DNA of 36,107 nt, taken from a virus (lineage: Duplodnaviria > Heunggongvirae > Uroviricota > Caudoviricetes). The DNA is taken from the IMG/VR virus record IMGVR_UViG_2630968500_000009; one strand, written 5' to 3'. Positions 3,492-32,799 of this stretch are shown one piece after another. The position numbers and the translations under genes are program-made. The notes under the pieces are model-generated. The model saw only the letters and a list, made by a program, of their open reading frames with translations. It ran no database searches and was not told the DNA's origin. Each line of letters begins with the position of its first letter. Position 1 is the first letter of the stretch.

Positions 3492-3791
3492 AAAAATTCC
3501 TTAATACTGATAACTTGGCGCACTATACACACGTTCCTGAAGAAAGCTATAGTTTTTTGATGGGGTTGAAGATGGCTGGATGTCTAAAATAAACATTGCT
3601 TCATATGTTCAACTATGCGTTAATGATTGCGTCGGTTTGAAGAACAGACGATATACGAAGTAGTTTACTAAAGCAGTTCTCATTTCAGGTGTTATTCACT
3701 TATTCCTTCTTTGAGTCTCTCCAATTAAGTACGAAGTCGTTTCTGTTATGCAAACCATTTATGCCGAAAGGCTCAAGTTAAGGAATGTAGA

Positions 3792-4007
3792 ATGTCAAAT
3801 AAAATGACTGGTTTAGTAAAATGGTTTAACGCTGATAAAGGTTTCGGCTTTATTTCTCCTGTTGATGGTAGTAAAGATGTGTTTGTGCATTTTTCTGCGA
3901 TTCAGAATGATAATTATCGAACCTTATTTGAAGGTCAAAAGGTTACCTTCTCTATAGAGAGTGGTGCTAAAGGTCCTGCAGCAGCAAATGTCATCATTAC
4001 TGATTAA
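3792..4007 (+). CDS. cspB: Cold-shock protein CspB-like (71 aa)
   Basis: [23 protein letters not shown]...VHFSAI... carries canonical CspA RNP1/RNP2 motifs; long AT-rich 5' leader. Confidence 0.8.
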
Positions 4008-4288
4008 AATTCATCGCTCGTCTGTATACGATAACGAAGAAGGCTGATGCCTGAGTAGAGATACGGACAGAGTAGTGAATATTGGATCTCTTTAATAAAA
4101 AGTAAGGAGGTCCAATACATGAAACAATGGCTAGCATATTTGGCAAAATATTAATCAGGAAAAGTATGCTAACCATTGTGGTGAAGTGCAGGTTTGCTGC
4201 ATGAATAGTTTTACAGCAGAAGCTAACTGCTGGCATGGCAAAACAAAGTGCGTAAGTGGATGACTCCCACAAAAAGCACCACAATCTC

Positions 4289-6432: not shown

Positions 6433-6441
6433 TGACACGTT
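6433..6441. repeat. IS1 target-site duplication, left copy (TGACACGTT)
   Basis: Identical 9-bp sequence immediately flanks both IS1 ends. Confidence 0.85.
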
Positions 6442-6496
6442 GGTGATGCTGCCAACTTACTGATTTAGTGTATGATGGTGTTTTTGAGGTGCTCCA

Positions 6497-6772
6497 GTGG
6501 CTTCTGTTTCTATCAGCTGTCCCTCCTGTTCAGCTACTGACGGGGTGGTGCGTAACGGCAAAAGCACCGCCGGACATCAGCGCTATCTCTGCTCTCACTG
6601 CCGTAAAACATGGCAACTGCAGTTCACTTACACCGCTTCTCAACCCGGTACGCACCAGAAAATCATTGATATGGCCATGAATGGCGTTGGATGCCGGGCA
6701 ACAGCCCGCATTATGGGCGTTGGCCTCAACACGATTTTACGTCACTTAAAAAACTCAGGCCGCAGTCGGTAA
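6497..6772 (+). CDS. insA: IS1 InsA (91 aa)
   Basis: [43 protein letters not shown]... matches IS1 InsA. Confidence 0.9.
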
Positions 6773-7194
6773 CCTCGCGCATACAGCCGGGCAGTGACGT
6801 CATCGTCTGCGCGGAAATGGACGAACAGTGGGGATACGTCGGGGCTAAATCGCGCCAGCGCTGGCTGTTTTACGCGTATGACAGTCTCCGGAAGACGGTT
6901 GTTGCGCACGTATTCGGTGAACGCACTATGGCGACGCTGGGGCGTCTTATGAGCCTGCTGTCACCCTTTGACGTGGTGATATGGATGACGGATGGCTGGC
7001 CGCTGTATGAATCCCGCCTGAAGGGAAAGCTGCACGTAATCAGCAAGCGATATACGCAGCGAATTGAGCGGCATAACCTGAATCTGAGGCAGCACCTGGC
7101 ACGGCTGGGACGGAAGTCGCTGTCGTTCTCAAAATCGGTGGAGCTGCATGACAAAGTCATCGGGCATTATCTGAACATAAAACACTATCAATAA
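6691..7194 (+). CDS. insB: IS1 InsB (167 aa; InsAB' transposase made by -1 frameshift)
   Basis: [25 protein letters not shown]... matches IS1 InsB. Confidence 0.9.
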
Positions 7195-7209
7195 GTTGGA
7201 GTCATTACC

Positions 7210-7218
7210 TGACACGTT
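7210..7218. repeat. IS1 target-site duplication, right copy (TGACACGTT)
   Basis: Direct repeat of 6433-6441. Confidence 0.85.
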
Positions 7219-7455
7219 TTATTAATAAATAAAGCTATTCTTTCATTGCTGTGTTTTTCTTTACAAAAGTAATCCTTGCTATGGGTGGTTAATCATGCGT
7301 TAATGGTGTTCTGGTTTGTTACAAATTTATCTGAAGCAGTCATTGTTATAATTTTATTATTTGTACCTCTTGAGATTTCCTTGTTGGTTTTTCTCTCTGA
7401 TATTTTTTTTCGGACCATTCTGCCCAAGGGCTAATTTCTTCAAAAGGTAATAATT

Positions 7456-7668
7456 ATGTCTAACAAAATGACTGGTTTAGTGAAATGGTTTAACCCTGAA
7501 AAAGGTTTTGGTTTCATCACGCCGAAAGATGGCAGCAAAGATGTGTTTGTCCATTTCTCAGCAATTCAGAGCAACGATTTCAAAACATTAACTGAGAATC
7601 AGGAAGTTGAATTTGGTATTGAGAACGGACCTAAAGGTCCTGCCGCTGTTCATGTAGTGGCGCTTTGA
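7456..7668 (+). CDS. cspI: Cold-shock protein CspI-like (70 aa)
   Basis: [38 protein letters not shown]...; long AT-rich leader; CspA-family motifs. Confidence 0.8.
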
Positions 7669-7873
7669 GGTAGACAATATTACAAACCATATTCACTTTA
7701 GATGCCCGTGTTGTCATGGTTCCCAGTATAGAACATCATCTTTTGATGTTTCTGACATGAATCCTTTCGGGGCAAAATGTATCTTTTGTAAATCAATGAT
7801 GATTACATTTGATAATATTTCACAATACTTAAATGCCAGCCGTCTGTCGTTGGATTTAAAAAAGTGAAAATGA

Positions 7874-7897
7874 AGGCTCCTTCGGGAGCTTTTTTGC
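7874..7897 (+). terminator. Rho-independent terminator
   Basis: AGGCTCC-TTCG-GGAGCT hairpin followed by TTTTT. Confidence 0.45.
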
Positions 7898-7939
7898 TTG
7901 GTGTCTATTCGATGGATACTCACATACTACGGTAACATC

Positions 7940-8170
7940 ATGAAAAAAATCATAGTTTTTTTTAACTCTGAACCAGCAGTGGTAGTGCCAGCGATGACTG
8001 GAGTTAACACCATCATGCGTGAATATCCAAATGGCGAAAAAACACACCTTACTGTAATGGCCGCAGGGTTTCCATCTCTGACCGGAGATCATAAAGTCAT
8101 TTATGTAGCCGCGGATCGACATGTTACTTCAGAAGAAATTCTGGAAGCAGCAATAAGGCTCTTGAGTTGA
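7940..8170 (+). CDS. Hypothetical small protein (76 aa from ATG 7940)
   Basis: ORF between cspI and gnsB; weak SD; start uncertain (the track ORF begins at TTG 7898). Confidence 0.35.
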   Translation: MKKIIVFFNSEPAVVVPAMTGVNTIMREYPNGEKTHLTVMAAGFPSLTGDHKVIYVAADRHVTSEEILEAAIRLLS

Positions 8171-8341
8171 TTTGATGCTATTGCATTGATAATTCAGGAA
8201 AATTCTCTTTGTCTGTTTGTGTAAAATTTAGACTATCGTATGTTGATTATTGCGATGTTTCATCTTATCTTTTACACGTTTGCACCATATAATCGACTTA
8301 CTGTGTAACTGGAAAGTCATAACAGACTAAAAGAGGAAATG

Positions 8342-8515
8342 ATGAATATTGAAAACTTAAAAACAAAAGCAGAAGCAGATATTTCTGAATATATAACAAA
8401 AAAAATTATTGAACTTAAGAAAAAGACCGGGAAAGAAGTTACCAGTATTCAGTTTACCGCACGGGAAAAAATGACGGGTCTTGAAAGCTATGATGTCAAG
8501 ATTAATTTAATCTGA
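8342..8515 (+). CDS. gnsB: GnsA/GnsB-family small protein (57 aa)
   Basis: Hand-translated, below ORF-track cut-off: MNIENLKTKAEADISEYITKKIIELKKKTGKEVTSIQFTAREKMTGLESYDVKINLI; AAGAGGA SD; TATAAT box at 8288-8293. Confidence 0.7.
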   Translation: MNIENLKTKAEADISEYITKKIIELKKKTGKEVTSIQFTAREKMTGLESYDVKINLI

Positions 8516-8666
8516 TGTATTCAATAATAAAATTTATCCATAAACCTCGTTTTTACGGGGTTTTGTTATATTTGAATGGTTCCGAATATCTAAATCACAA
8601 TTGTTGATGGTTTTTATTAAACCAATGCAGTCCGGCTCAGGAGTGAGAGAAGCCGGACGTTATGGT

Positions 8667-9077
8667 TTAGCGTGGTAAGATCTGTGTAGTTTTCTGGATG
8701 CTTTCAGTAAATAGTAATGAATTATCAAAGGTATAGTAATATCTTTTTTGTTCGTGGATATTTGTAACCCACCGAAAAACTCCTGCTTTAGCAAGGTTTC
8801 TTCTGTATTCCTGAAATGTGATCTCTCTGGATTTCAGCTTATTAGAGGTCGTTTCTATAAGATGCCTATCCTTTGAAAATTTGACAGACACAATGTTTTT
8901 TAGGCCCTTTAATAACACTGTATTATCATTTTTTAATACAATATGAACATTCTCTGTGGCTAAATAGTAAATGTAATGTGAGACATTGTGACGTTTTAGC
9001 TCAGAATAAAACCATTGATAGTTTAAATCGTTTCGAACTTTATCAAATATTTGTTTAAAAATGACTACCTGATCCAT
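8667..9077 (-). CDS. ydfO: DUF1398-family prophage protein (136 aa from ATG 9077)
   Basis: ORF antisense to the late operon; GGAAGG SD upstream of the internal ATG; conserved position next to cos. Confidence 0.65.
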
Positions 9078-9134
9078 AGATAAACCTTCCATGTGATATG
9101 AGGGGGCGTAGTCTGCACGATTATCTAAATTGCT

Positions 9135-32224: not shown

Positions 32225-32799
32225 TGGCATTCAGAATGAGTGAACAACCACGGACCATAAAAATTTATAATCTGCTGGCCGGAACTAATGAATTTATTGG
32301 TGAAGGTGACGCATATATTCCGCCTCATACAGGTCTGCCAGCAAACAGTATCGATATTGCACCGCCAGATATTCCGGCAGGCTTCGTGGCTGTTTTCAAC
32401 AGTGATGAGGCATCGTGGCATCTCGTTGAAGATCATCGGGGTAAAACGGTTTATGACGTGGCTTCCGGCGACGCGTTATTTATTTCTGAACTCGGTCCGT
32501 TACCGGAAAATGTTACCTGGTTATCGCCGGGAGGGGAATATCAGAAGTGGAACGGCACAGCCTGGGTGAAGGATACGGAAGCAGAAAAACTGTTCCGGAT
32601 CCGGGAGGCGGAAGAAACAAAAAACAGCCTGATGCAGGTAGCCAGTGAGCATATTGCGCCGCTTCAGGATGCTGCAGATCTGGAAATTGCAACGGAGGAA
32701 GAAATCTCGTTGCTGGAAGCATGGAAAAAGTATCGGGTATTGCTGAACCGTGTTGATACGTCAACTGCACAGGATATTGAATGGCCAGCACTGCCGTAG
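32224..32799 (+). CDS. tfa: Tail fibre assembly chaperone Tfa (191 aa)
   Basis: Start overlaps stf stop (ATAATGG); sequence resembles lambda/K-12 Tfa proteins. Confidence 0.85.

Follow-up and report, generated by a model that had tools for sequence, protein, structure and literature searches.

The window (the whole stretch of viral DNA analyzed here, 36,107 nucleotides) is a Qin-like lambdoid prophage, and the group of small genes that follows its cold-shock gene cspI is the known cold-shock accessory module of that prophage. An earlier sequence-only reading had picked out three small coding candidates between cspI (7456-7668) and ydfO, namely a Cys-rich frame, a 76-aa ORF and a 57-aa ORF, and all three are present there in both the sequence and the list of open reading frames. 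The features of the region are given below.

7310-7455, plus strand: cspI 5' untranslated leader, a cspA-type thermoregulator (Rfam RF01766)
7456-7668, plus strand: cspI, cold-shock protein of 70 aa (Pfam CSD, E 1.6e-31; RefSeq cspI in identical genomes)
7667-7671, plus strand: Shine-Dalgarno sequence GAGGT for ynfQ, overlapping the cspI stop and lying 7-8 nt before the ATT at 7679
7679-7867, plus strand: ynfQ (YmcF-like), 62 aa, two CxxC pairs, ATT start (RefSeq CDS WP_071524604.1)
7870-7935, plus strand: ynfR, 21 aa (MKAPSGAFLLGVYSMDTHILR), from RefSeq; b4749 in K-12
7873-7895, plus strand: intrinsic-terminator-like hairpin, GGCTCC-TTCG-GGAGC followed by T6, beginning 5-8 nt past the ynfQ stop
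7940-8170, plus strand: ynfN, full-length 76-aa form, with a T8 tract at 7956-7963; the start of the 51-aa K-12 form corresponds to the internal ATG at 8015
8243-8271, plus strand: candidate gnsB promoter, -35 TTGATT (8243-8248), 17-nt spacer, -10 TATCTT (8266-8271), its function predicted from conservation in the alignment
8288-8293, plus strand: TATAAT hexamer, read from the sequence and conserved among E. coli sequences only
8342-8515, plus strand: gnsB, 57 aa, GnsA/GnsB family, with GAGG at 8333-8336, 5 nt before the ATG
8542-8573, plus strand: terminator-like hairpin and T-run after gnsB (consensus scan: 9-pair stem with 4 G-C)
8667-9092, minus strand: ydfO, which bounds the cluster downstream

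The match to RF01766 (cspA thermoregulator) spans 7310-7695 and scores 112.8 bits against a gathering score of 78. An 1181-bp stretch covering 7440-8620 occurs in 2150 of 5426 complete E. coli genomes, the best matches being 100% identical, and RefSeq gives the gene order at the matching E. coli loci as cspI, ynfQ (also labelled ymcF), ynfR, ynfN and gnsB. The cryptic prophage Qin of E. coli K-12 MG1655 carries the same genes in the same order and with the same spacing (cspI b1552, ynfQ b4724, ynfR b4749, ynfN b1551, gnsB b1550), and over the compared stretch its DNA differs from that of the window by a single base. Unlike K-12, the window has an IS1 246 nt upstream of cspI, and its prophage retains terminase, portal and tail genes, judging from long ORFs of those sizes. 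In the window the cluster has the lysis genes (rrrQ, rzpQ) on one side and the terminase genes on the other. The module also follows the lysis genes in Citrobacter prophages and in the isolated phages Tritos, 2H10 and mEp460, and its placement after lysis and before terminase is common to Tritos, 2H10 and the Citrobacter prophages. A metagenome scan with the YnfN alignment returned relatives of at least 93% identity only, among which the five-gene order was fixed throughout.

Every gene of the cluster is already annotated (RefSeq, EcoCyc-style), and the toxin label of GnsB already stands in Pfam and PGAP. A review of the y-ome classes YnfQ, YnfR and YnfN as uncharacterised, the main text of Nakahigashi 2016 does not mention the cluster genes, and PADLOC returned zero matches for the four cluster proteins submitted to it (all except YnfR).

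The three candidates are real genes, and none of them is a chance ORF. Their family matches and RefSeq annotation bear this out, and all three are under purifying selection: when compared with Citrobacter, dN/dS was 0.07-0.13 for ynfQ, 0.11-0.22 for ynfN and 0.05-0.07 for gnsB. Loci L025-L027, whose assemblies are full of frameshifts, were set aside.

The Cys-rich frame is ynfQ. Its product matches Pfam PF23641 (YmcF-like) with an E value of 9.9e-32 over profile positions 1-61 of 62, position 1 falling on the ATT codon, and is 66% identical to YmcF; among NCBIfam models it gave only a sub-threshold match to the ECs_2282/YnfU zinc-binding family. The frame had been described as running from about 7703 to 7870 without an ATG, which was right about the lack of a canonical start and wrong about where the gene begins, since the real start is the conserved, RefSeq-annotated ATT at 7679. 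The frame is open from 7658 to its stop at 7865-7867, the upstream stop being at 7655-7657, and the ATT lies 10 nt after the cspI stop. Canonical starts further upstream were either absent, as they are in the window, or not conserved across the lineages compared. ATT encodes residue 1 in both E. coli paralogues, in other Escherichia, in seven Citrobacter species and at the more distant locus L108, and a GAGG or AAGG overlapping the csp stop, 7-9 nt before the ATT, was kept in every lineage examined. Of 19 distinct sequence variants, 17 keep both the ATT start and the Shine-Dalgarno sequence over the csp stop; ATT conservation fails in one frameshift-ridden assembly and in locus L110, whose ATT lies a codon further downstream. 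The missing ATG of the Cys-rich gene is thus already explained.

Very few E. coli genes, such as infC and pcnB, start at ATT. Together with the absence of ATG, GTG and TTG between the upstream stop and 7757, this rarity could suggest that the frame is a decayed gene that lost its start codon and is no longer translated. We consider such decay extremely improbable. The low dN/dS of ynfQ was obtained with dS above 1, and the four cysteines, the ATT and the Shine-Dalgarno sequence are kept in both paralogues and across genera (the two E. coli paralogues and almost all intact loci examined have C9/C12 and C34/C37; L022 carries C11Y); curated Pfam and RefSeq entries exist for the gene as well. Like ynfQ, infC and pcnB have a conserved ATT start behind a good Shine-Dalgarno sequence. 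The difference is that the Shine-Dalgarno sequence of ynfQ overlaps the stop of a very highly translated cold-shock gene, and initiation therefore probably takes place by coupling or re-initiation.

As to the protein, the model of YnfQ in a recent review is a rubredoxin-like miniprotein that binds metal (PMC13348028). The "ynfQ" of VanOrsdel 2018 was considered as evidence for this gene and rejected, since the name there denotes another gene, of 37 aa, at K-12 coordinate 1632890. That coordinate is the start of the Qin region, and the first gene listed there is now ynfT.

Between ynfQ and ynfN there is a further annotated gene, ynfR, which the earlier list of candidates had omitted. Its start is 2 nt past the ynfQ stop, and 4 nt remain between its end and the ynfN ATG. 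The 5' arm of the terminator-like hairpin consists of the first codons of ynfR, so that the ORF is read across the hairpin; the RNA fold has an energy of -14.9 kcal/mol (z -3.0), and the consensus scan reported the stem at 7876-7889. Equivalent hairpins are found in the cspG locus and in Citrobacter, so the structure has been kept in three lineages. Most Citrobacter loci retain the hairpin without the ynfR ORF, and from these comparisons the hairpin, rather than the ORF, is therefore probably the selected feature. Tagged YnfR protein was reported to be barely seen at 37 C and to rise strongly after cold shock (PMC6001520).

The 76-aa ORF was also correctly identified as a coding candidate, and it is full-length YnfN. 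The protein matches phrog_3425 over positions 1-76 (E 7e-54) and is annotated as WP_000720962.1 at a locus that is 100% identical in DNA. K-12 has T7 in place of the T8 tract of the window, and the resulting frameshift is why K-12 annotates a YnfN of 51 aa that corresponds to the C-terminal part. Citrobacter orthologues are 72-79% identical over 75 residues, and the first 25 codons of ynfN have a dN/dS of 0.06-0.12 against Citrobacter; on these comparisons the conserved form of YnfN is the 76-aa protein, and the 51-aa K-12 version is a frameshift remnant of it. Among 87 sampled loci, 13 had a T7 tract and 1 a T9 tract, and gnsB was intact in all 14. This count drew on a scan of viral contigs with GnsB, from which 80 loci were kept, with identical GnsB in all.

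Published RNA-seq data place ynfN with cspI. Fold rises of 6.5 for cspI, 5.9 for ynfQ and 5.8 for ynfN were reported, with SspA dependence of 38, 42 and 51, respectively (PMC11228462), and gnsB is absent among the genes listed with them. In long-term stationary phase the profiles of cspI and ynfN run in parallel, and gnsB is again absent among the genes listed (PMC7406224).

The 57-aa ORF had been assigned to the GnsA/GnsB family, an assignment that the searches upheld. GnsB matches Pfam PF08178 (GnsAB_toxin) over the entire profile (positions 1-54 of 54), with an E value of 3.3e-35 and 120 bits where the cutoff is 27. It shares 67% identity with GnsA over 57 aa and matches the GnsA structures PDB 4XO2/4XO1 with an E value of 5e-20. 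Its ATG at 8342 is the one conserved in Citrobacter, and the protein of the window is 100% identical to the gnsB product of a K-12 relative, CP178308 (L005). In the homologue search, the matches listed that carried a source name (at least 75% identical) came almost all from Escherichia or Citrobacter, and for that reason there were no distant gnsB contexts to compare.

Several published observations bear on what GnsB does. Plasmids carrying gnsA and gnsB rescue a low-temperature, low-unsaturated-fatty-acid growth defect (bioRxiv 10.1101/2024.03.27.586906), and the same preprint cites Sugai 2001 for a rise in unsaturated fatty acids with gnsA and gnsB, and itself demonstrates the rise directly for gnsA. 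Overexpression of K-12 gnsB was reported to suppress fabA6 and a secG-null mutation (Sugai 2001, as cited in bioRxiv 10.1101/2024.03.27.586906). In one preprint, pBAD overexpression of gnsA or gnsB led to higher persister counts, an outcome compatible with a mild toxin-like inhibition of growth.

A gap of 171 nt separates ynfN from gnsB. The sequence-only reading had given gnsB a TATAAT box of its own, and that hexamer is indeed present; the consensus scan found no good -35 element for it, and beyond E. coli it is not the TATAAT that is conserved. Instead, TTGATT-N17-TATCTT is the only strongly conserved block of the spacer between ynfN and gns when E. coli is aligned with four Citrobacter species. 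A consensus promoter scan did not find a gnsB promoter at its threshold, and TTGATT-N17-TATCTT scores below that threshold. After gnsB, the hairpin at 8542-8573 folds with a centroid of -10.8 kcal/mol (z -2.4).

The cspG locus of K-12 (cspG-ymcF-ymcE-gnsA; b0990, b4723, b0991, b4517) is paralogous to the cluster and shares with it the csp gene and the terminator hairpin. As in the cspI cluster, an ATT-start four-cysteine protein (66% identical) begins 10 nt after the csp stop, and a Gns protein (67% identical) follows. The cspG locus differs in having a gap of only about 194 nt between ymcF and gnsA, and in lacking ynfR, ynfN and the conserved gns promoter block. Its annotated ymcE ORF extends into the genes on either side, ymcF by 26 nt and gnsA by 11 nt, and is unrelated in sequence to YnfN.

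These comparisons bear on how gnsB is transcribed. All five genes are on the same strand, and the consensus scan found no terminator between ynfN and gnsB, which makes some read-through into gnsB likely. It could be, then, that the five genes form a single operon in which most gnsB expression comes from read-through of transcripts begun at the cspI promoter, with no promoter function for the conserved block; gnsA of the cspG locus, which lacks the block, must after all be expressed in another way. Against this, TTGATT-N17-TATCTT stands conserved in a spacer that has otherwise diverged, and gnsB is absent among the genes listed in the two published sets in which cspI and ynfN move together, although that absence counts for little because the lists are truncated. 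On balance we doubt the single operon, while regarding it as a possibility of some weight.

We consider it very likely that the cluster works as the known cold-shock module, with cspI, ynfQ, ynfR and ynfN on one cold-induced transcript, gnsB mainly separate, and YnfN not a dedicated antitoxin. The limits of the operon, the use of promoters, initiation at ATT and read-through of the hairpin are here deduced from sequence and from published fold changes. Cold would induce a single cspI-ynfQ-ynfR-ynfN transcript, on which ynfQ would be made by re-initiation or coupling at its weak ATT. Passage beyond the hairpin would be a matter of read-through, in which a ribosome at the ynfQ stop covers the 5' arm of the hairpin, Csp proteins mediate antitermination, or both. 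For its part, gnsB would be transcribed mainly alone from its own promoter-like block, and abundant GnsB would raise unsaturated fatty acids, as published for overexpressed GnsA and GnsB, and so help membranes in the cold. Should a translational relay of this kind, running from cspI to ynfN by way of an ATT start and a terminator hairpin, prove real, it would illustrate neatly and on a small scale how gene dosing can be tuned to cold, without adding a new principle.

The sequence-only reading had also pointed to a report of a GnsA paralogue as a toxin neutralized by the small protein encoded just upstream, and had proposed that the 76-aa ORF and gnsB may be an analogous pair. This is borne out as far as the label goes: Pfam and PGAP name the Gns family an addiction-module toxin, and YmcE-GnsA is counted among E. 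coli type II systems with a citation of Wei et al. 2015 (PMC8484670). The precedent falters in ymcE, which does not evolve in the manner of a coding sequence. In the part of ymcE that does not overlap its neighbors, dN/dS between E. coli and E. albertii was 0.81, compared with 0.12 for ymcF and 0.016 for gnsA (Fisher p = 0.005). Variable sites at the first, second and third codon positions numbered 9, 6 and 5 in ymcE, as against 3, 2 and 18 and 4, 0 and 16 in the neighboring genes. The ymcE ATG was conserved in 0 of 4 other Escherichia lineages; ymcE is frameshifted in one Escherichia lineage and carries an in-frame stop in another, and gnsA is intact in both. The region is well conserved as DNA, and in this small sample, which provides a lead, it appears more likely to serve gnsA as a regulatory element or leader than to encode a protein. 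The YmcE-GnsA precedent is thus doubtful, as ymcE may not be a true protein-coding gene.

If YnfN and GnsB were a toxin-antitoxin pair like YmcE-GnsA, growth would be inhibited by GnsB unless YnfN, made from the gene just upstream, neutralized it. Synteny is what one would expect of such a pair, with ynfN directly before gnsB in 80 of 80 close metagenomic loci and in all Citrobacter loci but one, and the addiction-module name of the Gns family, the type II entry for YmcE-GnsA and the persister counts after gnsB overexpression all point the same way. Other evidence argues against it. BLASTP gave no alignment of YnfN to YmcE at E<=100, as is also the answer to the alignment of the 76-aa ORF with YmcE that had been proposed (its other proposed partner, YnfN, is the ORF itself), and YnfN matched no NCBIfam model, including NF007379 for YmcE, on which YmcE itself scores 187 bits. 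The gap between ynfN and gnsB contains the conserved promoter-like block. Upstream, ynfN abuts ynfR in a stop-to-start series that also takes in cspI and ynfQ, and in published RNA-seq it is co-regulated with cspI. The two genes also occur independently. YnfN homologues follow a csp gene without a gns gene at L108-L110 and in phage PHB10, where extra ynfN paralogues stand alone, and the cspG locus has gns without ynfN. Frameshifts of ynfN, seen in K-12 and in 14 of the 87 loci sampled, accompany an intact gnsB in every case. The modelled structure of YnfN gave no clear match to an antitoxin fold, and multicopy gnsB rescues growth instead of killing (bioRxiv 10.1101/2024.03.27.586906). As for ymcE, it shows no coding constraint, and two Escherichia lineages in which it is disrupted retain gnsA. 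We therefore find the proposed pairing unsupported and think a toxin-antitoxin relationship between YnfN and GnsB very unlikely. As far as sequence comparison can tell, the analogy to YmcE-GnsA seems to be positional only, and the idea is weakened, not refuted.

A variant of this idea does without homology to YmcE. YnfN could be a non-homologous functional replacement for whatever controls GnsA at the cspG locus, a small protein of new fold that would bind GnsB and moderate how GnsB alters membrane lipids in the cold. The relay from the cspI stop to ATT-start ynfQ, to ynfR across the terminator, and to ynfN would then set the dose of YnfN. We hold this to be very improbable as well. From the evidence above we infer that YnfN is a csp-linked small alpha/beta protein and not a dedicated antitoxin of GnsB.

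A comparison with classical type II modules, such as relBE, which is also in Qin, shows both shared features and differences. In ynfN-gnsB, as in those modules, two small adjacent genes lie on the same strand of a mobile element, and the downstream gene bears a toxin label in databases. Classical modules usually have genes that overlap or lie a few nt apart, whereas ynfN and gnsB are separated by a long gap with its own promoter-like block, and ynfN belongs to another, translationally packed unit. Unlike classical type II modules, too, the two genes have independent phyletic patterns, with natural frameshifts of ynfN in genomes whose gnsB is intact. The toxin-antitoxin label of YmcE-GnsA should accordingly not pass to ynfN-gnsB by position alone.

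The four genes cspI, ynfQ, ynfR and ynfN follow one another with very little intervening sequence. The ATT start of ynfQ lies 10 nt after the cspI stop codon, the ynfR ATG 2 nt after the ynfQ stop, and the ynfN ATG 4 nt after the ynfR stop. These short gaps suggest that the genes would be serially coupled in translation across the terminator hairpin.

Features in the window and, where a locus is named, in the comparison loci
3631-4023: second cspA-thermoregulator match, 158.8 bits, above the score of the cspI-leader match
6442-7209: complete IS1, 768 bp, between rzpQ and cspI
7666-7942, + strand: closely packed run from cspI to ynfN, each stop codon only a few nt (2-10) from the next start
7956-7963: T8 homopolymer, ynfN codons 5-8, with an A7 run before it
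32567-32765: Rfam IS009 RNA match, 221 bits, within the tail-fibre region of the prophage
L002:2590-3287: another IS1, carried by strain 7/2 and by ten genomes like it (H1-H11)
L003:1548-1778: annotated ymcE ORF of K-12
L108:2037-2261 and L110:725-949: second ynfN-like gene, 5' of a csp gene

The T tract of ynfN varies in length. It is T7 in K-12 MG1655 and in 13 of the 87 sampled loci, T9 in one locus, and ynfN is frameshifted in every T7 and T9 case among these sequences. Possible explanations are a hot spot for mutation or an on/off switch at this site, and part of the length variants may be sequencing errors. The second ynfN-like gene, found in a more distant lineage, is 36-55% identical, and no gns gene was present anywhere across the two loci that carry it.

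On either side of the IS1 upstream of cspI lies one copy of its duplicated 9-bp target, TGACACGTT, at 6433-6441 and at 7210-7218. The element sits 246 nt 5' of the cspI ATG, about 100 nt 5' of the start of the cspA-type leader; of the 5426 complete genomes, no more than 42 have its junction. In strain 7/2 and its ten relatives, the other IS1 lies directly 3' of gnsB, where it alters the last codons of that gene (58 aa versus 57). The cspI-gnsB cluster seems to be a repeated IS1 target.

The second thermoregulator match presumably belongs to a cspB-like gene of the same prophage, which would therefore have at least two cold-shock units. YnfQ (7679-7864) has a sub-threshold match in NCBIfam, at E 0.002, to ECs_2282/YnfU, a family of putative zinc-binding proteins. 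Its K-12 representative, ynfU, is located beside cspB in the same prophage. As csp-adjacent CxxC miniproteins, YnfQ and YnfU could be distant relatives. Name-based literature searches for ynfQ can mislead: the "ynfQ" of VanOrsdel 2018 (PMC6001520, Table 1) is another gene, of 37 aa, located at K-12 coordinate 1632890, where the Qin region starts; the gene now listed first in that region is ynfT.

We compared K-12 ymcE with its counterparts in four other Escherichia lineages (L018, L019, L022 and L023), where its start ATG is unconserved. Substitutions are spread evenly over the codon positions (9/6/5), and dN/dS is 0.81, versus 0.02-0.12 for the flanking genes. Two lineages have a disrupted ymcE, one by a frameshift and one by an in-frame stop, and gnsA is intact in both. 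The annotated ymcE ORF shows no coding constraint; perhaps it is not an antitoxin gene but a leader that belongs to gnsA and encodes no protein.
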